Below, in pieces: positions 1 through 51,469 of a stretch of DNA of 64,000 nucleotides. Position numbers and translations under genes: made by a program. Position 1 is the stretch's first letter. Each line of letters begins with the position of its first letter. Source of the DNA: a virus; UHGV virus genome UHGV-0236300, one strand, 5' to 3'. Below the pieces are notes generated by a model. The model was given only the letters and a program-made list of their open reading frames with translations. It did no database searches and was not told where the DNA came from.

Positions 1-763
1 TAACAAATATCTATTAAACCCAGATGACCATTATAAAAGTTGGACGTGGTGCGGTATTGCCGATGCGTTTGCAAAGGCCAATGGCTATAAAGATACAAAA
101 GAAGCCAAGAAAAAACTGCCTGATACATTTGATGATGAATTAGCACAATTTGCAATTGATAATGCAGAACGTGTATTTCAATCCGTTGCAATTGGCGGTG
201 GTGCCAAAATAAAGAGAAAAGAAACTATCGAGAAGTCAAAGAAAGATAGGGATAAGGTTTATGTACATCCAAATGAGGATGTCGAAGGCTTTTATATCGC
301 AAATGGTAGGCAAATGGTCTTTTATTCCAATAGGCTTTTGGAAATTGACGGCAAGATGCAGCCTGCTGAACTAATAACTGATGTTTGGACTGACATTAGT
401 TGGAATGGAATAGCAAATGAAGGCGGCGTTAGTTTCAAAAATGGAAAAAAGCCCGAAGCGCTTTTGAAGCGAATTTTCGAAATGTGTACGCGAGAAGGAG
501 ATTTAGTCTTGGATTCATTCGGCGGTTCAGGAACTACTGCTGCCGTAGCTCACAAGATGAAAAGACGTTGGATCTCTGTCGAGTTAGGTGATCATTGTCA
601 TACCCATATCATCCCGCGCTTGCAAAAAGTGATCGATGGCAAAGATCAAAGTGGTATTTCTAAATCTGTAAACTGGCAAGGTGGCGGGGGCTTTCGCTAT
701 TACAAACTTGCCCCGAACTTAGTTATGAAAGATAAGCTTGACTCAGAAGAAGATTTAGAGTAA
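1..763 (+). CDS. DNA methyltransferase (beta-class amino-MTase, N6-adenine or N4-cytosine type), C-terminal part; 5' end outside window
   Basis: ORF open from nt 2 to stop at 761-763; AdoMet motif DSFGGSGTT and KKPEALLKRIF segment typical of Mod-like MTases. Confidence 0.75.
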   Translation, partial: NKYLLNPDDHYKSWTWCGIADAFAKANGYKDTKEAKKKLPDTFDDELAQFAIDNAERVFQSVAIGGGAKIKRKETIEKSKKDRDKVYVHPNEDVEGFYIANGRQMVFYSNRLLEIDGKMQPAELITDVWTDISWNGIANEGGVSFKNGKKPEALLKRIFEMCTREGDLVLDSFGGSGTTAAVAHKMKRRWISVELGDHCHTHIIPRLQKVIDGKDQSGISKSVNWQGGGGFRYYKLAPNLVMKDKLDSEEDLE

Positions 764-822
764 TATTTAAAATATCTAAGGGTAGGTCTACTCTTCACAC
801 AAGATAAGGAGAACACCAAACG

Positions 823-1065
823 ATGAAGCGTTATAAACCATACACTTTTGAAATCGATTTCGAACTTGACGATATGCTCACTGTAGAAGCTCAGGCAGTT
901 GTCCAGTTGCCAGATCCGGAGTGCCGTGATTCTGATGTTGATTATTATGGATTTAGACAGATTACTGATGTGCATGTTTACCACACAACGGAGAAGAGGT
1001 GGATTTTCACCAGTTACCAAACGATCTGCGCCACTCGATTTACAAACGTGCAGCACGTGAACTAG
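823..1065 (+). CDS. hypothetical protein
   Basis: 80-aa ORF with AAGGAGA RBS upstream of ATG. Confidence 0.5.
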   Translation: MKRYKPYTFEIDFELDDMLTVEAQAVVQLPDPECRDSDVDYYGFRQITDVHVYHTTEKRWIFTSYQTICATRFTNVQHVN

Positions 1066-1126
1066 AGTCCTATCTGGATGCAGCGACGACAGCGGCAGCA
1101 TTTGCTGAAGAAGTAGGAGGCTTCTA

Positions 1127-1525
1127 ATGATTACAGATGTGAAGATTATCCAATACCACCTAACCAAATTAGAAGATGCTGAAAAAGAGCTTGCAGAAGT
1201 TCTGAACAGTGGGTATACTTTACTGACATGCTCCTGCTCAGACACATACATTGTGTGGACACTTGCTAAGAAGGAAGAGCCTGCATGGATCTTGGTGCCA
1301 AACCCAGAGATCGCTAGTGAAGTTGATGGCTACTCCCAAGATAACGGCTTGCCAGAAGGTTGGGAAGTGTGGGAAGGTGGTGAAAACCCTGCACCAGGTA
1401 AGTGGGTAAAATACAAACTACGTAGCGGTGCACAGTATGCTGACTACTCTGATGACCTAGACTGGAGTCACTCTTCACCAGGATCATCTGCAAGTGCATA
1501 TGATATTGTTGCTTTTCAGGAATAA
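1127..1525 (+). CDS. hypothetical protein
   Basis: 132-aa ORF, RBS GTAGGAGG upstream. Confidence 0.55.
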   Translation: MITDVKIIQYHLTKLEDAEKELAEVLNSGYTLLTCSCSDTYIVWTLAKKEEPAWILVPNPEIASEVDGYSQDNGLPEGWEVWEGGENPAPGKWVKYKLRSGAQYADYSDDLDWSHSSPGSSASAYDIVAFQE

Positions 1526-1537
1526 GGAGAGGGTGTT

Positions 1538-2020
1538 ATGTCAGATTTTATGTGGAAGGTAGGTTATGCCTCTCCTGAAATGTGTGAGGCTTGTTTTGTG
1601 AAAATAGGCCGCGAGGATATTGACAAAGTGATCCTTAAGTTTCGTGATGTGTCTGTAATCGGCAACCGAGTTCTTAAGCACTTAAAGAATCTGAAGCTCA
1701 CCAAGAAGAAGTTCTTCGGACTTTTCGAAGAGAAAGTTGATGCTTGGACCCATTGCATTCAGGAAGCTAAATCTCACTACAGTGCTATCGTTACTCCGGA
1801 ACGGGTAGCCAAGATGGAAGGATTCATCAACAGCACGGAGTTTGAGTGCCTAAAGGCTGCCCTTGATAGCTATCCAAAGTGCCTCAAACACCTTGACAAG
1901 TATGTAGAAAAGGATGGTGAAATGTATCTCACCCTGGACGCATACTATGAGATGCAAGAAATTTTAAATTTAGATTTGACATTGGTATCCACCGAGTATA
2001 CAATAGGTATCCGGGTTTAA
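1538..2020 (+). CDS. hypothetical protein
   Basis: 160-aa ORF, RBS AAGGAGAGGG upstream. Confidence 0.55.
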   Translation: MSDFMWKVGYASPEMCEACFVKIGREDIDKVILKFRDVSVIGNRVLKHLKNLKLTKKKFFGLFEEKVDAWTHCIQEAKSHYSAIVTPERVAKMEGFINSTEFECLKAALDSYPKCLKHLDKYVEKDGEMYLTLDAYYEMQEILNLDLTLVSTEYTIGIRV

Positions 2021-2027
2021 CACTATG

Positions 2028-2053
2028 CCCTGCCCGAAAGGGTGGGGCTTTTT
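2028..2053 (+). terminator. rho-independent terminator
   Basis: 8-bp stem CCCTGCCC/GGGTGGGG (G-U wobbles), GAAA loop, then CTTTTT; near-identical copy at 13029-13056. Confidence 0.6.
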
Positions 2054-2071
2054 GCATTAGGAGACAGCAAA

Positions 2072-2836
2072 TTGAAATTTATCTACAAAGAACACTACCA
2101 CAAAGGTGTCGTGTGGAGTCTATTTGACGGGTCTGGTGGTGCAGTTATTGACTGGGCAAAAGCTGGGTACCTGTGCCTGTGCTTTAATGCAGAAGGTGCT
2201 GACCACGGTAGTTATGCAGAGGTGATAACCGATCATCCTAACATTCACTATGTGGATTATTGGATTGATCCATGGTTCCCTCAAGAAACTTTTTGCATGT
2301 ATCCAGCTCCAGACTTTATTCTTGCATTTCCTCCGTGCACGCATTTAGCAGTATCCGGAGCTGCACACTTTAAGAAAAAGCTGGCTAAGGACCCACTGAT
2401 CCAAATTAATGCTGTGAAAGATGCTCGGGTTGCAGAAGAGTTGGGAGAGATTTATGATTGCCCGTGGCATGTAGAGAACCCTGTAGGAGTTATGTCAACA
2501 CTGTGGCGAAAACCTGATTACCGTTTTCATCCTTCGGATTATGGTGGGTATCTACCAGAGGACGATGTAAACCCATGGTTTCCTGAATTTATAGCTCCAC
2601 GTGATGCCTACCCAAAAATAACTTGCGGTTGGATAGGCAATGGATTTATAATCCCCGCCACAAAACCTGTCCCGCAAATAGTTGATGTGGTTAGTGGTTA
2701 TTCCATGCAACACGCTAAGCTAGGTGGAAAGAGTGCAAGGACGAAGATGATTCGAAGCCTTACACCACGTGGCTGGGCAAGAGCTGTATTCTTAGCAAAC
2801 GAGCCTGCAGTAAGGAGAAGAATTAATGGGCAGTAA
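2072..2836 (+). CDS. C5-cytosine methyltransferase-like protein (divergent, small)
   Basis: Motif I-like LFDGSGG, motif IV-like FPPCTHLAVSGA (PC dipeptide), motif VI-like HVENP; start taken as TTG 2072 after AGGAG, since GTG 2042 lies inside the terminator stem. Confidence 0.45.
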   Translation: MKFIYKEHYHKGVVWSLFDGSGGAVIDWAKAGYLCLCFNAEGADHGSYAEVITDHPNIHYVDYWIDPWFPQETFCMYPAPDFILAFPPCTHLAVSGAAHFKKKLAKDPLIQINAVKDARVAEELGEIYDCPWHVENPVGVMSTLWRKPDYRFHPSDYGGYLPEDDVNPWFPEFIAPRDAYPKITCGWIGNGFIIPATKPVPQIVDVVSGYSMQHAKLGGKSARTKMIRSLTPRGWARAVFLANEPAVRRRINGQ

Positions 2837-4904
2837 ATTCATGGCATCTGCATACAACCGTTTCGGTGAGCCAAACCCGAAAGCAACTAAGTATAAAAGT
2901 GGGGGAAGTGTGAAACGAGACTATCGTGATGAAAAAGAAGTTGAAACTGTAGAGACTGTTTTAGAAAATACTAAAATTGTCCCTGTTCCACAACAAAATA
3001 TTGGACTGATGGCTGCACAATATTTTGGTGTACGATCATCGCTATCCCAAGAGGATGGTGTAACTGTTACTGCCACCTACTTTCCGTATTATGACCGCTA
3101 CGGTAATCTATCTGGCTTTAAAAAGCGGGACTGGACAATCCCTAAAGAGCAAAGGGGCCATTTCTCGGTTGTTGGCATAGTAAAGGCCAACTCCCAGATG
3201 TTTGGTCAAAAGCTGTGTGCATCCTCCAACAACCGCAAGCAGATTAACGTTTGTGAGGGGGAAGGAGATGTTATTGCAGCGTGGCAGGCTGCATATCAGG
3301 TACAAGTAAAAGGAATTCTCACCAATACTAAAGCCCCGGCGAAGGTGAAGCAGTGGGCTAAAGAAGTCCAGGATGGGATTGATGCAGTTATCAACGGCGG
3401 TGATCTGGCAGGAAAACCATGCCTGCCTTTTGTCGGAATTAACTGCGGGTGTGCAAACGCCGTAGACACTTTTGCGAACAATGAGAAATTTATCCGTAGC
3501 TACGGAACAGTAGTCCTTGCAATGGACAACGATGCAGCTAACGAGGTAGAGAAGCAAAAACACGTTATCAAAGGTGTTGAAGCTACGCATAATATCGCAG
3601 CATTTTTGATGGCTGACAACGTTTACCACGTGGAATACCCAGGTGAGGTAAACGACCCTGATGGTGTAAAAGATATTCGTGACATGCTGAAGGCTAAAAA
3701 GCTGGAAGATATTGTCAACATGTTCCGTCACCCAGTCAAATATGTGCCTGATGCTGTATCTGATTTAGAAGACTTCTCCATTGAATCTCTTCGTAAGAAG
3801 ACTTCCAATGGCGTGGATATCAGTGCAGAGTTCCCTAAACTGCAGAAGATGCTGAAAGGACTCCACAAAGGCACCTTGATGATGCTGACAGGCCCGTCTG
3901 GCGGTGGTAAAACAACTGTAGCCAAGAAGCTGGAACATTGCATTGCAAGATACTTGATGGACCCAACATGCCCTAAAGCTGATGATTATGAAGAGGATGA
4001 TCGCCTGTGCCTGATTCACCTTGAAGAGGATCCTGAGGAAGCAATCAACTCTCTGTACGCTAACCAGCTGGGGTTTGATGTTAAAGAGTTTGTTGAAGAC
4101 CCCAGTCAGTTCCTGACCGATCAGGAGCACGCTGAGATTCATCAATCTTGGGCCAAGGCCGGAAAAATCAAAGTGTTCAAGCATTTCGGCTCCATCCCTG
4201 TAGATGAGCTGATCACTAAGCTTAAACAAATGGTGTGCCTGTATCACTGCCGTTACATTGTGCTGGATCACTTGTCTATGGTGATTTCAGGGCTTAATGT
4301 TAAGGATGAGCGTAAAGAGCTTGACATGGCTATGACTCAACTAGCCGCGTTCTGTAAGCAGTTTAATGTGTTTATCTTGGTGATTGCTCACCTGAAGCGC
4401 ACAGAGATTGTACCTCCGAAGGATAAGGATGGAAATCCGTTACCTTTCTGGTACCCTGTACGAAAAGAGAACCTTCGCGGTAGTGCCGGATTGGAGCAAC
4501 TTAGCTGGGTGGTTGTCGGGGTAGAGGCAGAGGAGATGGTGGATCGTTCCCGTGGGCGTGTCCGGCTGGTAGGTCTTAAAAACCGCCCAGCAAAAACCTT
4601 AGGTATTGCGGACACTCTAGTTATGGATCCCCACACAGGCAAGTTCCACGATGCCAGCAATTGGTATTGGGATAAAGAGATGCAGATGTTTACAGACGGG
4701 GAAGGTGGAGAGGTTGTTTGGAGACCTCAAGCTATGTTTGAGGATCAGGAGCATGCAGTTGTAGAAACACCTGTGGGCAAGGTTGTGGCTGATAAGGTTA
4801 TAACTCCTGCTGTTAACCCTGTTGACACACAGGAAGATCTTCAGTATGATGATCCGTCCTCTAACCACGTTCCTGGTTTTGAAGACGACGAAACACCTTT
4901 TTAA
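2826..4904 (+). CDS. DNA primase-helicase (T7 gp4-like)
   Basis: TOPRIM-like CEGEGDVIAAW; Walker A GPSGGGKTT; Walker B-like FILVIAHL; acidic C-terminus ending EDDETPF; RBS AAGGAGA. Confidence 0.85.
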   Translation: MGSKFMASAYNRFGEPNPKATKYKSGGSVKRDYRDEKEVETVETVLENTKIVPVPQQNIGLMAAQYFGVRSSLSQEDGVTVTATYFPYYDRYGNLSGFKKRDWTIPKEQRGHFSVVGIVKANSQMFGQKLCASSNNRKQINVCEGEGDVIAAWQAAYQVQVKGILTNTKAPAKVKQWAKEVQDGIDAVINGGDLAGKPCLPFVGINCGCANAVDTFANNEKFIRSYGTVVLAMDNDAANEVEKQKHVIKGVEATHNIAAFLMADNVYHVEYPGEVNDPDGVKDIRDMLKAKKLEDIVNMFRHPVKYVPDAVSDLEDFSIESLRKKTSNGVDISAEFPKLQKMLKGLHKGTLMMLTGPSGGGKTTVAKKLEHCIARYLMDPTCPKADDYEEDDRLCLIHLEEDPEEAINSLYANQLGFDVKEFVEDPSQFLTDQEHAEIHQSWAKAGKIKVFKHFGSIPVDELITKLKQMVCLYHCRYIVLDHLSMVISGLNVKDERKELDMAMTQLAAFCKQFNVFILVIAHLKRTEIVPPKDKDGNPLPFWYPVRKENLRGSAGLEQLSWVVVGVEAEEMVDRSRGRVRLVGLKNRPAKTLGIADTLVMDPHTGKFHDASNWYWDKEMQMFTDGEGGEVVWRPQAMFEDQEHAVVETPVGKVVADKVITPAVNPVDTQEDLQYDDPSSNHVPGFEDDETPF

Positions 4905-4962
4905 TGTTTAACCAAGAGTGGGAGGGGTAGTACAACCGCCTCCCCTTTAAGGAGAACTGTAT

Positions 4963-7386
4963 ATGAGCATGTGGTCGTTCGATTTTGAGGCCTCTGGCTT
5001 GCTGGAAGACCCAGATCTTTATTATCACTGCGGTTTGTTTAAAGAGCTGAATAAGAACCGTTTTATGCTGTTCCTTCCCCTAAATGACCGCACACACTAC
5101 TCTGAAGAGGATGTGGAGAAAGCTAAGAACTTCATTCTGGCAAAGAAGACCCTTTATACAGATTTTGAGGCTCGCATAGCAGATTTTTCAGAGTTGGAAG
5201 GCTGGCTTACAGGCAATTCAGACTGGTCACCTACGGCTTTGAACTGTCATAACTGCTACAGTTACGACTTTATGCTGATGGAAAGATTATCCGGTATTCA
5301 TTTTGATATGTTCCGTGATCCTAAATGCATGGGAACTATCAACGACCACCAGGTTAATCTGTTTGATACGTTAGCGATGAGTCGAATCTTGTGGCCTGAC
5401 CGCCCTTTGCCAAAAGGTTGTCCAGACGCAGTATTCAATCCAGTTACCAAGAAAATGCAGCCTGTTGGACCTCATGGTCTTATGGCATGGGGCTATGCCC
5501 TTGGTAACCAGAAAGTTCAAATCGATGACTGGCGGGAGCTTCCGCTGTGGAAGTATGTGGATCGTGTGTTCGAGGACGTTATCATTCAGGAGTTGCTCTG
5601 GAAGGAGTTGGTAGCGGAATCAAAAGGTGTATTCTACGGCAAATCTGACATGCAGAACTTTATGTACGATCCTGCCAAAGAGAAGCCGAAAGGCTTCAAG
5701 AAGATCACCTGGAAGAACGCATTACGCCGAGGCATGTTACAGCACTTCCTGATGGAGCTGCAGGCTCGACAGGGGGTGTATTTCGACATAGATGGGGCTA
5801 TTGCTTTACGTGATCGTTGCGATGCGTGGATGAAAGAGATCGCTGATCGTGTTGAACCACAGCTTCCTTTAAAAGAGTTATCAATGTCTCAGCGGCCTAA
5901 GTTCCCTGAAAAGCCGTTTAACCAGGATGGGACAATCTCCAATAATGGTTGGAAATGGTTAAAAGACAAGCTTGGCTATCCTGTGGACATGAGTGCTTTA
6001 GAATTTAAAGCCCCTCCTAAGCGAGCATTTACCTCCACAGGGGATGTAAGTAAGATGGGGATAAAATGGTGTGAAGAGATGGGCTGTAAAGACCCCGATA
6101 AGATGGCTGATTTCTTGAGGGGGTATATCAAAGGAACTTCTACACCACACCCTTTACCTAAAGAGCTGATGGATCAGGCGATAAGTGACCTACAGCAGAA
6201 GCGAATGCCTGACTGCAAGATACCCATGAAAATCAGCAATCAGGACGACATCAAGCGATACCTGATCAGTGCTGGTTGGCTCCCAACAATGTGGAGAACT
6301 AAGGATGTAACTAAGGATAGCAAGAAGAAAGCTTTACCTGATGCAGATGTTGATGCACGAGTATATGCATATATGGACGAGCTTTTGGAGTCAGAGTATT
6401 GTGACCTAATTATCAACTTCTGGAACAAAACTGATGCTAAGTTCCAGACAACTGTACATAAGTTCAGAAGCTTCCCTAACTCTGAAAGAATTAAAAAGGA
6501 AGTGTTCGGGAAAATACGTAGAAAAGCCAGAGCGCTTATTACTTCTCCGCAACTGAAAGATACGTTTGGGCACCTGTGCCCGAATCTTGAAAAATTGAAC
6601 GGAGAGATGGCTAAAGATATCGTTTTGTGGTTATCATTGCGAAACCGTAGATCGGTCCTTGATCCAATCAAGGAAGATAAGGTTGATACTGGTCTTCTTA
6701 ATCATCCACGTTTGAAGATTGACCACAAACTTCCTGCTAAAAGTTCTGGATTAACAAACACTTCCAGACAGAAACATAGTATTTGTGCAAACATGCCTAA
6801 ACCATCTCCTAAAGTGGTTATGGGTAAAGAGATGCGTAGTCTGTGGGGTGTTCCTCCGGGATACTTTGAGATCGGTATTGACGGGTCCAACTTAGAGCAG
6901 CTCATCGGGGCCTGGGGTGCCTTTGAGTTTGACAACGGTCTGTATTATGATGTTGTAAGTAACGGGGACGCGCACCAAAACAATGCTGAGGCATATACAA
7001 AAGTAGCAGGTAGAGAGGTGTCCCGTAACGATGGTAAACCTATCACGTATGGGGTTATGTATGGGGCACAAAAAGATAAAGTTGCAGATATGCTGGATAT
7101 CTCTCCCGAACTGGGGCAGAGAGTAATCGATGCTCTCTGGGATGCCAACCCAGGTCTTAAGGGGCGCAAAGAGGATCTGGAGAAATTCTGGGAAGCAACA
7201 GGTAAGAAATTTATCTACTCTTTTGACGGGCATGCTATTTGGACACGCTCTAAACACTCTTTGCTTAATGCATATCAGCAAAATGGCGGTGCATCACTGT
7301 GTGACCTAGTTGGGATACTCATGCACCACCAGATGGTGAAGCGTGGATGGTATGATGAGGGTGTTCGTCGTATTATTTATTACCAT
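4963..7386 (+). CDS. DNA polymerase, family A, exon 1 (proofreading domain, motifs A and B)
   Basis: Exo I FDFEASG; motif B RxxxKxxxYGVMYG; QQNGGASLCD segment like T7 QSAGALICK; frame hits stop at 7390-7392 just before the expected motif C. Confidence 0.85.
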
Positions 7387-8228
7387 AAATAACATTGTGG
7401 CTTCGTGCAGTGATGCACGTCGAAAACCTCTTTAATTGACGGGAAGGCTAAGTTGACTTTTACGCCTAAACATGGTAAAAGCTCAATATGCTAATCCGCA
7501 GCGAAGACTAAAGGGGTGTAGTTAAAATGGCTAGATCAGTTGATTATCACGGATATACCGTGTTTGATGATGGAACAATACCTTTATCGAAACGTGATCA
7601 TACAACAATGTTTTGTTTTGATAATGGTAGAGGTTACCTTTGCGTAACCATGCTCATCGAGGGGAAGCAGTGCACAAAAGGTGTCCACCACTTGGTTGCT
7701 GAATGCTTTGTACCGAACCCTGATCCTGAAAAGCTCACATGGGTGAACCATAAGGATGGAAATAAGTACAACAATGCATACTGGAACTTGGAATGGACTA
7801 CCCCTGGCGGAAATATCAAACACGCCTACGATAATGAACTCAGAGTAAGGCCAGTCGGTGAGTATAATGCCAACGCTGTACTGACCGAGGATGAGGTAAC
7901 GGAGATTTGTGAACTGTTGCAGAGTGGTCTACGACAATGCGAGATTAGGGATCTTGGGTATCCTTATGAGACGGTTAGGGCCATAAAGCAAAGAAGACAG
8001 TGGAAACATATCTCTAAAAACTACACCTGGTAGTAACGTTCAGAGACTATCGAAAGCATAGCTCCAACATAGTTTGGTGTGAAGAAGCGAGTAGAGTAGG
8101 CCAGCAAGTGCGGTCGAAATGAGAGGTGCCTTGGTGACAAGGCAGTGAGATAGTCCGATCCATACAGGAAACCGTATGGCTGTGCACGTAATGGTGCGGG
8201 GTAGCTTAACGACCTACCTGAACTATTG
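7387..8228 (+). mobile_element. group I self-splicing intron with HNH endonuclease ORF, interrupting the DNA polymerase gene
   Basis: Core elements P AATTGACGGGAAGG (7434-7447), Q AATCCGCAGC (7493-7502), R GTTCAGAGACTA (8038-8049), S AGATAGTCC (8148-8156); upstream exon ends in U (7386), intron ends in G (8228); candidate P1 between exon CCAU and intron GUGG (7397-7400). Confidence 0.8.
7527..8033 (+). CDS. HNH homing endonuclease (intron-encoded)
   Basis: HNH motif HHLVAEC...NHKDGNKYNNAYWNLEW; ORF sits between intron elements Q and R. Confidence 0.8.
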   Translation: MARSVDYHGYTVFDDGTIPLSKRDHTTMFCFDNGRGYLCVTMLIEGKQCTKGVHHLVAECFVPNPDPEKLTWVNHKDGNKYNNAYWNLEWTTPGGNIKHAYDNELRVRPVGEYNANAVLTEDEVTEICELLQSGLRQCEIRDLGYPYETVRAIKQRRQWKHISKNYTW

Positions 8229-8582
8229 GATGAGTACCAACTTCAAGTGCCTGACACACCTAAGTATAAAACTGTATACACCTTCGACACAATTGAAGAG
8301 CTGGAAACATTTAAAGCCCAACAAGAGGCTAAACTTCATGTGTTCGACGGTCATAAGTACAAAAAGGCACGCAAAGATGAGGACGGAAACGAAGTGGTTG
8401 ACAAGGACGGAAATACGGTATACGATCCTATCTTGAACGATGACGGAAAGCTTGAACTTATCTGGAGCCCTGTGGGCGAAATGGTGGTGCATTGCTTCTG
8501 GCAGGCTTCTAAAATGATGGGCGTTCCGTTCCAGATCACAGGTGAATACTTGTGCGGTCGTAACTGGGGCGATTGTCACTAA
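8229..8582 (+). CDS. DNA polymerase, family A, exon 2 (motif C and C-terminus)
   Basis: Begins GAT GAG directly after intron 3' G; with exon 1 gives YYH|DEYQ (motif C HDE); ends GRNWGDCH with terminal His as in T7 gp5. Confidence 0.7.
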   Translation, partial: DEYQLQVPDTPKYKTVYTFDTIEELETFKAQQEAKLHVFDGHKYKKARKDEDGNEVVDKDGNTVYDPILNDDGKLELIWSPVGEMVVHCFWQASKMMGVPFQITGEYLCGRNWGDCH

Positions 8583-23682: not shown

Positions 23683-24204
23683 CAAGTTTTTCTCCTCTTT
23701 GTCAAGTGCCGCATGAAAAATTTACAAACTGGTATGGTAGCATTTTTGCGGCCCTGTTTACATTCAGGAATGTATGTATAATCCTTGCTGTGTGGGCGTT
23801 TAGACGTCTGGACGGTCAGAAGTCAGCAGGTCAATATCTAATCTATTGGTTGCTAACTATATCCCACACAAATAGTAAGAAATATAATTGTTATGTGCGT
23901 AAACAGTAACTCATGTTATCAATCCCTGTATGTATCGCCAGTGGTGCGCATAATGGGTATTATGTTAAATTGCCCGTAATGATAACCATTCTCACAATGA
24001 TAGGTATTCTCATTCATCCCCACAAGATAGATTGCAAATGTTGTGCCACTGTGTGAACGGCCTCACCTATTAATTTGCCTCACTGCCTCGATATTTGAGA
24101 ATTATTATAAAAAATGAGAAGTATTCCCATTCCGTCCGCCTGGCAGCACTCCTGTAGGACAAGCACAACATCGGGGTATAACTGGACCTGTTCAGATATT
24201 TCTG

Positions 24205-24345
24205 GCTGACTCTTCAGGCCTGTGTGGGAAAAGCCAACCTCTCCGGCGGCGGGGAGGGGGGTCAATTAAAAAATTTACGTGGTGTATGAAGCGCTCTTCA
24301 GGCAAGGTGTGTATTATGGGATGAAACCCTCTTCAGGTGATGATA
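24205..24345. repeat. CTCTTCAGG repeats and G-rich repeats
   Basis: CTCTTCAGG at about 24211, 24296, 24330 (and 24739); CCGGCGGGGA(G/T)GGGG at 24244 and 24388. Confidence 0.4.
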
Positions 24346-25113
24346 TTTGTGGGGGGATATTTGCTGGAAAGCCAGATATGACGGGGCTCCCGGCGGGGAT
24401 GGGGTAGTACAGACAGGGAAAATGTGGGGATGTGGTGGGAGTAAATTGATCAAGTAGGTAGGATATGGAATATGTTACAAGTATGTTAAATATAGAGGTA
24501 GGATATTTGTGAGATTTGTGTGTAAAATCAAAGACTTAGGTGGTGTTGTGGTATTTTCTATAAATAATTCAAGTTTAATAGGTGATATTTGTCTCCATCC
24601 ACTTTGTGTGGTAAACAGCTCCTAATTGAATTGGTTTACAAGTGTATATAAAGTATACAAATTAAAGATATAAGAAACCCCCCTCCCCCTTCGGCTACCA
24701 TTCACCTTTTCCTCTGACTGGTACTTAAACACTTATTCAGACTCTTCAGGTTATCACCCCTATACTATATGGCAGTGACTGGTGTCCTCCGGCCCCTCTT
24801 TCGCCACCCGTCCGCTTCGCCATGCTAATGCCATAGCCAAAGGTTCGGTTGTTCACCCTGTTCACTCAGGTGTATCTCCATACCCCTTCAAACCGAAGAG
24901 AACAGAAAACCCGAATTACTCGGTAAAAGAAAAGAGAAGAACTTAATTTTATCAAGATAGGCAAGAATGTCAAGGGATGACTGCTCACTAAACAAGCAAA
25001 CAGTCATGTGTGGTAGGTAAGTAACTGGGTTGGTAGGAAATTTAGTTGGAAGATGTTATAGGTGCCTCCAGAACCTTAGCTGGGCAGCTAAACCTGCAAA
25101 GCAGACTTGTGTG

Positions 25114-25329
25114 TCAGTCCAAAGGTTCATCTACTACTTCACTGAAATCAATGTTCAGGGTCTCTTCCCAACCATCAATCTCAGCACCAGAGTAGAGATC
25201 TTTAGGGTCTACATCAAGGGCTTCCGCAACAGCATCTATATTTAACACTTCTGGCAGGTAAGATTCATCGAATTCAAGGTAAATCAGGCCACGAGTGTTG
25301 TCAGTCCCACCAAATATTTCTATTTTCAT
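25114..25329 (-). CDS. hypothetical acidic protein
   Basis: ATG preceded by AGAGGAG. Confidence 0.45.
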   Translation of the reverse strand: MKIEIFGGTDNTRGLIYLEFDESYLPEVLNIDAVAEALDVDPKDLYSGAEIDGWEETLNIDFSEVVDEPLD

Positions 25330-26133
25330 GAAATCTCCTCTGGAAATGAGAGTGTGAACAGGGTTTATACGTTCCAATACGCTGGAATTATGCACGTTTG
25401 CCTCTTCAGGCCATGCTTTAGCATGATAAACTTATGTGGGCTCGGTGCTTCATAGTCTCCCACCTCTGAACTCTTCGTGCTCGGGCATAATAGAGAACCA
25501 GATGGCTATGATATCTTCCCACGTTAGGTCATCAGCCTCAGGATCCACCTGGGACGGAGATAGAGAATCCTCAGAATTGAAGTTTTCCTCTATCACTCCT
25601 TCAGATGTCTCTGTAGATGCATGTGTGTTGGTCATGTTCCACCCGTGAGTATTCCGGCAACATGTTTAAAAAATAAGACTTTATCAACATATGGCCGGAA
25701 CGTGTCGATGCCATAAGCATATTCCTGCAACAGCCGCTATGGACGTAATGATCATCAGGATCACCACTAAAACCTCTGACAATGTTTTCATTGTGTATTC
25801 CATATTATCCAAACAATGTGTGGATACTATCACAGGGGCGGTAATGTGTCAACAGAAGCGCCGCGAGGGTTTGGTTAAAATCCGAGCGTATGGTGATTTG
25901 GGTCAAAACGGGCGTGCGTTCTCGCTACGCTCGAAATAGAGAGTTGTTTGTAGGATGACTTTAAACGCTCTGTAAGGAGATTAATTGTCTAAGGTATGGA
26001 ATCGTGCACCAGATAAAGAAAAGGACGCCACAGAGCGTCCTAGGTGCCTTAAATTTGATATTTTGCTATACCCATGAGGGCTTGTCTAGGTTGGAGTAAC
26101 TGAAGGGGGTCAAAAGGTGACTGTCAAAATCTT

Positions 26134-36600: not shown

Positions 36601-36885
36601 CTACCAGGTCACTGTCAAGTAGGCAACTGTGTTATTTTTCTCCGGGGAGATGCCAACAACATCCACCCGCAGACCTCCTGCCCTCAAATCCCCAACGATG
36701 TGTGGGAAGTAGTCTGAGAGGTGTGATGGAAGATTTATCGAAAATCCGCATCCCAGAAAGCCTGCTAACGCCTTATTTTGTATCTCCCCTACAATCGCAT
36801 CATAAATGGAGTTAAGCTCGTCAGGGAGAGTTACAGGACGTTTTAGCGCTAACTGGTGCAACTTGTCCTTAGCACTCATTTTCAT
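36601..36885 (-). CDS. hypothetical protein
   Basis: ATG overlapping stop of upstream MTase gene. Confidence 0.45.
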   Translation of the reverse strand: MKMSAKDKLHQLALKRPVTLPDELNSIYDAIVGEIQNKALAGFLGCGFSINLPSHLSDYFPHIVGDLRAGGLRVDVVGISPEKNNTVAYLTVTW

Positions 36886-37415
36886 TTCAAGTCTGCCTCC
36901 GGAGGTGCCAACCACATAAATGGTGGTAGGTCTAAACGGTTCTTCTTGTCCCACACAAAATATGCATATGCTTGCCCGTCAGTTCTGCCATTAGATTGGA
37001 ATGATGGACGCTTAGATATTGTGATCACAGTGGTAGGGGCATTATCAAGCCACCATTCAAATCTGGCCTTGCTTTCCAGAAAATTAAGACGCAAAAGCAT
37101 AATAACTACGTCAGCATCTTTCAACGCCTTGTCCACAAACTCACGAGCCAGGCTGTACGGCGGGTTGGTGATAATACAGTCAACATGGTTGTATTCCGTA
37201 TTCAGATAGTCAACACCTTCTTGGATTTCTCCCCATGCAGATCCTAACGGCATACGGGAGTAGAATACACCTGAGGCGCTATTCCTGCAAGGCTCCAAAT
37301 AGGTCCAATCTTCTGGGAACGGAATGAGGTTATACAACCCTTCTGCACACCACTCTGGTGTCACATATTCATCATAGGCGTTACGTTGTTCGTCAGGTTT
37401 TCTAGCACAAGTCAT
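36882..37415 (-). CDS. DNA methyltransferase (NPPY-type, N6-adenine or N4-cytosine)
   Basis: Catalytic motif IV IITNPPYS; RBS TGGAGAT. Confidence 0.65.
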   Translation of the reverse strand: MTCARKPDEQRNAYDEYVTPEWCAEGLYNLIPFPEDWTYLEPCRNSASGVFYSRMPLGSAWGEIQEGVDYLNTEYNHVDCIITNPPYSLAREFVDKALKDADVVIMLLRLNFLESKARFEWWLDNAPTTVITISKRPSFQSNGRTDGQAYAYFVWDKKNRLDLPPFMWLAPPEADLK

Positions 37416-50677: not shown

Positions 50678-51469
50678 CTATAGATCATACCTGGTCTCCA
50701 AAATGTATTGTAGTTCTTTCTTGCCTATACTCTTCATTCCAGCAGTCTTACCTGCTTCTTCTTGAAAAGAAGAATAGCATTCAGCAAACACTCTGTCAAC
50801 ACCGTCAACTAAAGATTTTATGAAATATGTTGATTCTTCAGATTTTGGGTCATCATCCCCCAATACTTTTCCAGCATTATACCCAACACGTCTTATGCAG
50901 AAGTCGTAGTCATCTGGTGTACTAAAAGAAAATAGCTTATTCTCCCCAATCTCTACAGGATCCCTATTGCACACCTTTTTCTCCCAAATTTGGAAAACAC
51001 ATGGCACGTCATAAGGTTTGCCGTTGAGTAAAAACGAGTTCTTGGGGCACCTTTCACTGTAAATAAGGTGCATCGACATGTCCAGTTTGTTTGCAAAAAA
51101 TATTTTTTCAAATGTCCGTGGCAAGATGAAGGCTATAGCCCCACCAGGCTCTAGCAATGATGCGCAGTGGTTAAAAAACTTGCAAGCTAAAGACGAATTT
51201 TTGCCGAATGGGGGATTACCTATGAAGACATCAGCCTTAGGGTACACCTCTAAGAAGTCTGCCTTAATACACGGTGTTGGGCCTTCAAATTCAGGATCTG
51301 GTACCAAATCGTACGACAGTATCTCTGAAAATAGTTTTGAAAAAGAACCCTTTCCAGCAGAAGGCTCAACGTATGCACAACTCCCATACTTACCTTTTAC
51401 TTTACCAACAAGATATTCTGCATACTCAGGGTCTGTGTAATATTTGTCGTTGGACTCTTTCTTGCTCAA
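50678..51469 (-). CDS. DNA N6-adenine methyltransferase (NPPF-type)
   Basis: Motif I VEPSAGKGSF; motif IV IGNPPFG. Confidence 0.7.
   Translation of the reverse strand: MSKKESNDKYYTDPEYAEYLVGKVKGKYGSCAYVEPSAGKGSFSKLFSEILSYDLVPDPEFEGPTPCIKADFLEVYPKADVFIGNPPFGKNSSLACKFFNHCASLLEPGGAIAFILPRTFEKIFFANKLDMSMHLIYSERCPKNSFLLNGKPYDVPCVFQIWEKKVCNRDPVEIGENKLFSFSTPDDYDFCIRRVGYNAGKVLGDDDPKSEESTYFIKSLVDGVDRVFAECYSSFQEEAGKTAGMKSIGKKELQYILETRYDL

Follow-up and report, generated by a model that had tools for sequence, protein, structure and literature searches.

An experimentally studied relative of the gene considered here is the Dcm-like methyltransferase of the KarlJaspers-like phage K42. Mutants of K42 that escape the retron Ec86 were all found to be affected in a 711-bp gene annotated 'Dcm-like C5 cytosine methyltransferase' (Wang et al., bioRxiv 10.1101/2023.08.16.553469; Cell Rep 2024;43:114857), and K42 dcm expressed alone was toxic only with retron Ec86 present (Wang et al., 2024). 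The enzyme raised the level of 5-methylcytosine (5mC) on the multicopy single-stranded DNA (msDNA) of Ec86, as measured by LC-MS (mass spectrometry coupled to liquid chromatography), with the effect being lost in a C82A/E128A/K175A/K176A mutant (Wang et al., 2024). An AlphaFold2 model of K42 Dcm was superposed on DNMT3A, and it was by this superposition that K175 and K176 were assigned (Wang et al., 2024). CCWGG was taken as the target by analogy with the host Dcm, with CCTGG in the msDNA stem shown to be needed for defence (Wang et al., 2024). Here we compare with this enzyme the product of a gene at 2072-2836 in UHGV virus genome UHGV-0236300, examined within a 64,000-nucleotide stretch (the window), and conclude that it most probably is an orphan, single-chain, S-adenosylmethionine (AdoMet)-dependent DNA cytosine-C5 methyltransferase from the family of compact 'Dcm-like' phage enzymes, a reading to which we give a probability of about 85%.

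Relationship to K42 Dcm and other cytosine methyltransferases

The window protein is 54% identical over 235 residues (E 9e-87) to the product of bas06_0055, the 711-bp gene of phage KarlJaspers (Bas06; MZ501090) that carries the same Dcm-like annotation, while the genome of K42 is 95% identical to that of KarlJaspers. Like the K42 and KarlJaspers enzymes it is compact (254 amino acids (aa) here, 236 aa there) and carries FPPC, ENP, PK.T and RSLTPRG, and like K42 Dcm it finds its best structural match in DNMT3. With residues numbered from the TTG at 2072, C82, E128 and K175 of K42 Dcm correspond to C89, E135 and K182, and other family members have C, E, K and K exactly at the positions of 82, 128, 175 and 176. 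The initial annotation had proposed a minimal Dcm-like methyltransferase, and this proposal is supported both by the identity to the KarlJaspers enzyme and by the formation of 5mC in vivo by the nearly identical K42 enzyme in a manner dependent on catalytic residues. From this 54%-identical relative we infer that the window enzyme would also form 5mC. The two differ in a loop, …VSGYSMQHA ('GYSxQ') in the window protein as against …DKDNPGW-A ('NPGW') in K42 and KarlJaspers, and in the phages that encode them, K42 being a T1-like siphovirus and the source phage here being of a 137-kb myovirus type, with the experiments concerning the K42 enzyme only. An orthologue 97.3% identical to the window protein is present in phage Bas51 (WalterGehring), where it is annotated 'Dcm-like C5 cytosine methyltransferase'.

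Fold searches place the catalytic domain in the C5-methyltransferase fold. Searches of the PDB with phmmer and with a profile returned M.HaeIII, DNMT3B and DNMT2 at the top, all below threshold and over motifs I-IV. The window protein shares with M.HhaI, M.HaeIII and E. coli Dcm (PF00145) this fold and the order of motifs I, IV and VI, but it is 70-220 residues shorter, has some 30 aa in place of their target-recognition domain (TRD) of about 90-140 aa, lacks both QxRxR and a GN motif X and falls below the Pfam threshold. To the catalytic domains of DNMT3A and DNMT3B it is only 11-16% identical. DNMT3 retains recognisable motifs VIII-X and acts as a DNMT3L-assisted tetramer.

Family size and profile matches

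The gene is present in nearly all rV5-like phages and also in many T1-like, Klebsiella and Salmonella phages. With tblastn, 1,505 phage records were found to encode it, covering Vequintavirus, T1-like Drexlerviridae, Klebsiella, Salmonella, Shigella, Cronobacter, Vibrio and even Arthrobacter phages, with annotations ranging from 'hypothetical protein' to 'DNA cytosine methyltransferase' and 'Dcm-like C5 cytosine methyltransferase'. A large protein collection contained 4,176 homologues, and when 1.84 billion cluster representatives were scanned in full with HMMER, 2,096 clusters at 50% identity were recovered (E ≤ 1e-3). Almost all of these sequences are 210-260 aa long, which indicates that the whole family is small and that the present protein is not truncated.

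The profile phrog_757 'DNA methyltransferase' matches residues 10-262 of the 264-aa translation from an alternative GTG start (E 5.8e-87), which is essentially the whole of the 254-aa protein, and the signatures of this compact Dcm-like family (PHROG 757), FP(P)CT, ENP, D.Y.K.T and RS.TPRG, are all present. With PF00145, for which the gathering threshold is 22 bits, three of ten relatives score above it at 24.7-28.5 bits, though the match covers only positions 4-94 (motifs I-IV) of the 324 in the profile, and among 46 diverse family members (identity down to 32%) only four reach E < 0.01. The initial annotation had held that the lack of a C5-methyltransferase profile hit would speak against its assignment. 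Such a hit is indeed lacking for the protein itself, but since some of its relatives pass the PF00145 threshold over motifs I-IV this absence is too strict as a refutation.

Motifs and conservation

Per-column conservation revealed four conserved blocks, namely aa 13-40 (motifs I/II), 81-104 (motif IV), 131-195 (motif VI and then a family-specific block, WRKPD…DYGGYLPEDD.HP.FP…RDAYPK.T, up to the motif-VIII equivalent) and 216-240. Invariant columns in the alignment of the same 46 sequences include P87, C89, G96, E135, N136, P137, D178, Y180, K182, T184, P232 and G234; R233 is also invariant, with P-R-G opening the last helix. The motifs first quoted for this protein (LFDGSGG, FPPC…SGA and ENP) are all there and are among the best-conserved positions of the family, so they are not chance resemblances. 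In the profile alignment LFDGSGG is paired with SLFSGAGG of M.HaeIII and SLFDG of DNMT3B, and FPPCT is aligned to GFPCQ of M.HhaI. The equivalent of motif VIII, which was assigned structurally, is D178-x-Y180-x-K182-x-T184.

The last conserved block reads KLGGKS.RTK.IRSLTPRGFARAV, and many family members stop 4-10 aa after it. Its best collinear match, M.HhaI 260-283 (AKTGGY…RKLHPRECARVM), which covers the end of the TRD and motif IX (R-x-L-x-P-R-x-x-A-R), is marginal (shuffle p ~0.05); within it RSLTPRGWARAV aligns to RKLHPRECARVM (M.HhaI 272-283, motif IX). The M.HhaI reference sequence was identical to PDB 10mh and P0271. A remnant of motif IX may be present, with the last helix in the position of either motif IX or motif X.

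The missing target-recognition domain

Between motifs VIII and IX, where canonical enzymes have a variable TRD of ~80-140 aa, the methyltransferase has only ~30 aa. These residues lie between the strand equivalent to motif VIII (K182-x-T184) and K216, with the counterpart in M.HhaI being ~94 residues long, and the earlier statement that no recognisable TRD could be found is thus correct. Within this stretch aa 196-214 alone are variable. Across the family the spacing from K.T..W to GG(K/R) is 12-42 aa with a mode of 21, and among 180 members the loop falls into a 'GYSxQ' class (96/180, including this phage), a 'NPGW' class (31/180, including K42 and KarlJaspers) and many other variants. On sequence grounds a vestigial TRD would most naturally be sought in aa 196-214, and since these are unlike the K42 version no target sequence can be carried over from K42 Dcm to this enzyme. 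This loop of ~19 aa would have to read the DNA together with the basic block KLGGKS.RTK.IRS, possibly in an oligomer as in DNMT3.

A further proposal, which we regard as tentative and on balance unlikely, is that the family represents the smallest self-sufficient DNA C5-methyltransferase architecture, working without a TRD and possibly without motif X by means of a ~20-aa loop and a basic block, and that the target of the GYSxQ class is other than CCWGG, the site presumed for K42 Dcm, and is perhaps a very short or relaxed motif through which much of the phage genome would be methylated. If this were true, swapping of the loop would turn the enzyme into a minimal, re-programmable scaffold for cytosine methylation. 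As annotation this adds nothing new, the gene with its label and the family's activity being already public; the remaining value is mechanistic, in how a C5-methyltransferase of ~230-250 aa works without a recognisable TRD. Its specificity bears on which restriction systems are evaded by these therapeutic-candidate phages, on whether they trigger defences of the retron Ec86 type and on the prospect of a small programmable 5mC writer.

Proposed mechanism and role

Because of the conserved residues and the data on the K42 homologue, a conventional catalytic cycle can be proposed. The DGSGG loop would bind AdoMet, and Cys89 in the FPPC loop would attack C6 of a flipped-out cytosine, with Glu135 of ENP holding N3/N4 and Lys182 standing in for the arginines of motif VIII, such that the methyl group would be transferred to C5 and 5mC released. 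Transcription would probably start early, at a promoter of the host type; the location of the gene among replication genes and a promoter match upstream (Table 1) are together in keeping with early expression and with methylation of phage DNA as it replicates. The likely role is that methylation of the replicating DNA allows escape from cytosine-sensitive restriction, with a side effect known for the K42 relative, the activity of which is sensed by retron Ec86 (Eco1). In the BASEL study methyltransferase genes and resistance to restriction were not found to be linked in any simple way, a statement that concerns Drexlerviridae. In the window CCWGG occurs at 113 sites with an observed/expected ratio (O/E) of 0.83 under a Markov model and 1.47 from composition. 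This lack of avoidance is compatible with protective methylation, but the counts are uninformative on specificity because the host Dcm would give the same picture.

A number of observations weigh against the assignment. The protein has no match to PF00145 at E ≤ 10 and none in an NCBIfam scan, and hhalign comparison of the family alignment with M.HhaI alone and with a 20-sequence M.HhaI-family alignment recovered motif IV only and non-significantly, the M.HhaI relatives used all being at least 71% identical and too narrow a set for a useful profile. Motif VIII in the form QxRxR is absent, no recognisable GN motif X follows the C-terminal block, and the counterpart of K176 in K42 is Ile183. In the pairwise alignment with the KarlJaspers enzyme the hypervariable segment is the sole stretch without identity. 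The K42 evidence was obtained in vivo with one quadruple mutant and included no determination of specificity. In addition, a literature search yielded no direct cytosine-methylome data for Vequintavirus or Drexlerviridae, and the nanopore study of Bas51 reports N6-methyladenine (6mA) calls only.

Alternative explanations

It is very unlikely that the enzyme acts not on the duplex phage genome but on RNA, as a Dnmt2-like tRNA m5C enzyme, or solely on single-stranded or structured DNA. The only substrate demonstrated for the family is retron msDNA, a small stem-loop DNA, but the methylated part of this molecule is a double-stranded stem with CCTGG. DNA methyltransferases outscore Dnmt2 in both fold searches, and the gene lies in a DNA replication module beside another DNA methyltransferase gene.

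E. coli makes carboxy-S-adenosylmethionine (Cx-SAM), and an enzyme of the C5-methyltransferase fold could in principle move a group other than methyl, for instance as a CmoX-like DNA cytosine C5-carboxymethyltransferase using Cx-SAM from the host CmoA. Availability of Cx-SAM in E. coli, with which the EcCmoA control is consistent, is in keeping with such an activity, as are FPPC and the invariant P-R-G at the start of the last helix (invariant Arg233) in the family. The model for this is SpCmoX of Synechococcus phage S-B43, a phage enzyme with the C5-methyltransferase fold that uses Cx-SAM and is marked by SPPC and by an arginine (Arg350) replacing Asn304 of M.HhaI (PMC12783734). SpCmoX is unlike the window protein in being longer (372 aa in the solved chain), in having SPPC and Arg350, in using Cx-SAM and in being accompanied by a phage cmoA and a ligase (PMC12783734). 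The Ser of SPPC is Phe in the window protein, and an equivalence of R233 with N304 of M.HhaI is not established, the best sequence mapping placing R233 in motif IX. No cmoA or amide ligase is annotated in the 4-kb flanks of the Bas51 orthologue or anywhere in the KarlJaspers genome. Moreover, the K42 homologue gave 5mC by LC-MS against a standard, 5mC rather than 5-carboxymethylcytosine being what was measured. We therefore hold the transfer of another group to be highly improbable, and the initial suggestion of a pyrimidine-C5-modifying enzyme of another kind, with which the sequence by itself is compatible, is made unlikely by the 5mC of the homologue.

Some C5-methyltransferases are split, with M.AquI and M.EcoHK31I having a separately encoded recognition subunit, and the window protein with its missing TRD, its unrecognisable motif X and its length of ~75 residues below that of M.HhaI might be taken for the catalytic half of such an enzyme. 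There is little to recommend this view, as plasmid-borne K42 Dcm on its own methylated msDNA and triggered the retron. The neighbours also differ in the two contexts inspected, being primase/helicase on the 3′ side and three small open reading frames (ORFs) on the 5′ side in Vequintavirus but small hypothetical ORFs in KarlJaspers. A pseudo-enzyme, DNMT3L-like or otherwise catalytically dead or decayed, might be suspected from the lack of a Pfam match, the absence of motifs VIII and X and the Ile at the position of K176. This is scarcely credible given that the catalytic residues are invariant in the 46-sequence alignment of a family that numbers over 2,000 clusters, that 116 phage records have a copy whose protein is 95% identical or more, and that PK(I/L)T occurs throughout the Vequintavirus group, which makes the change at K176 lineage-wide and not decay.

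Gene boundaries and the 5′ region

The boundaries first given for the gene, 2072-2836, stand, with a Shine-Dalgarno sequence 7 nt before the TTG and the same start in the annotation of the Bas51 orthologue (an equivalent TTG; 765 bp, 254 aa). The listing of ORFs began the gene instead at a GTG at 2042 (end 2836, plus strand); this start was rejected, being buried in a hairpin, lacking a Shine-Dalgarno sequence and differing from the start in the orthologue annotation. The hairpin is located between the upstream ORF and the methyltransferase gene, and with its run of five T residues (T5) it could be a leader or attenuator stem or the terminator of the upstream gene. The order of elements in this region is unusual, with a promoter match followed by the terminator-like hairpin and T5 and then by the ribosome-binding site (Table 1).

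Table 1. Position of the methyltransferase gene, its motifs and neighbouring or related features in the window.
Feature	Position	Strand	Remarks
Compact Dcm-like C5-cytosine DNA methyltransferase gene (putative)	2072..2836	+	TTG start, 254 aa, stop 2834-2836
Motif I, AdoMet-binding loop LFDGSGG, aa 17-23	2120..2140	+	Conserved in family
Motif IV FPPCTHLAVSGA (FPPC…SGA), aa 86-97	2327..2362	+	Catalytic Cys89 = Cys82 of K42 Dcm
Motif VI ENP, aa 135-137	2474..2482	+	Glu135 = Glu128 of K42 Dcm
Family-specific conserved block WRKPD…DYGGYLPEDD.NP.FP…RDAYPKIT, aa 145-184	2504..2623	+	Ends in motif-VIII equivalent
Hypervariable segment, candidate mini-TRD, aa 196-214	2657..2713	+	Occupies TRD position; 'GYSxQ' class
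Conserved C-terminal block KLGGKSARTKMIRSLTPRGWARAVF, aa 216-240	2717..2791	+	Best collinear match M.HhaI 260-283
Shine-Dalgarno AGGAGA	2059..2064	+	7 nt 5′ of TTG 2072; read from sequence
G+C-rich hairpin, 9 bp stem, GAAA loop, then T5	2027..2053 (stem-loop 2027-2048)	+	-21.3 kcal/mol, z -2.7
Sigma-70-like promoter TTGACA-17-TACAAT	1976..2004	+	11/12 consensus match only; 5′ of hairpin and gene
N6_N4-type DNA methyltransferase, C-terminal part	1-763, cut by window start	+	PF01555, E 2.5e-19
Primase/helicase gene	2826-4904	+	ATG at 2826; 11-nt overlap with end of methyltransferase gene
Sigma-70-type promoter match, near-consensus 11/12	4822-4850	+	Just 5′ of DNA polymerase gene
DNA polymerase gene	from 4963	+	Next after primase/helicase
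Methyltransferase-like ORF, NPPY	36882-37415	-	phrog_799 'DNA methyltransferase' E 9e-67; Pfam EcoRI_methylase/Dam sub-threshold
Methyltransferase-like ORF, NPPF	50678-51469	-	phrog_5172 'unknown function' E 1e-123; Pfam Eco57I/MTS sub-threshold

Genomic context

The first 6 kb of the window were 91-98% identical by megablast to Vequintavirus, the rV5/FV3-like myophages of E. coli, with vB_EcoM-ECP26 as the top match of 1-6000 (98.3% identity) and 113 records covering at least 80% of the query; by these matches the window is assigned to Vequintavirus. The same search of 1-6000, in which all matches were at least 80% identical, also returned 16 records named 'Campylobacter phage' (15 with Campylobacter jejuni as host). 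Such names on records that match an E. coli Vequintavirus region suggest that they are mislabelled or contaminant records.

The methyltransferase gene is placed within the replication module. On its 5′ side are an N6-adenine methyltransferase gene that is truncated (1-763) and three small ORFs to which no function is assigned. The DNA polymerase A gene (4963-8582, plus strand) is interrupted within an HDE motif, the first exon ending …IIYYH near 7390 and the second beginning DEYQLQV… at ~8229. The insert of ~836 nt has a sub-threshold match to group I introns (RF00028, 31 bits, E 7e-6, 7377-7633) and holds an ORF at 7527-8033 that is HNH-endonuclease-like (HNH_3, E 3e-4). In Bas51 the polymerase is likewise annotated as two pieces joined.

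Other methyltransferases and restriction sites

The initial annotation also counted three amino-methyltransferases in the window, which is broadly right, the N6_N4_Mtase at 1-763 being solid and the NPPY and NPPF ORFs weaker cases (Table 1). The position of 1-763 matches that of bas51_0070 in phage Bas51, the product of which is reported to methylate GATC/GTAC and to trigger the retrons Asa1 and Squ1 (Bas51 nanopore study). With a bas51_0070-like gene beside the Dcm-like gene, the phage would have two methyltransferases of the kinds that are sensed by retrons.

Some hexamers are strikingly depleted in the 64-kb window, with one RCCGGY site against ~11 expected (O/E 0.09), two YGGCCR sites against ~18 expected (O/E 0.11) and no GTCGAC site. 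GTAC and CTAG are low (O/E ~0.6), and GATC and CCWGG are not avoided. The depletion of hexamers may reflect selection by particular restriction systems of the host against which the methylases of the phage give no cover.

The GC skew along the window is positive to ~26 kb, negative for 26-62 kb and then positive again, with changes of sign at ~24000-26000 and ~62000. All three of the ORFs listed at 36.9-38.5 kb and all three at 50.2-52.5 kb are on the minus strand, and the change in skew thus probably reflects a switch in the direction of transcription.
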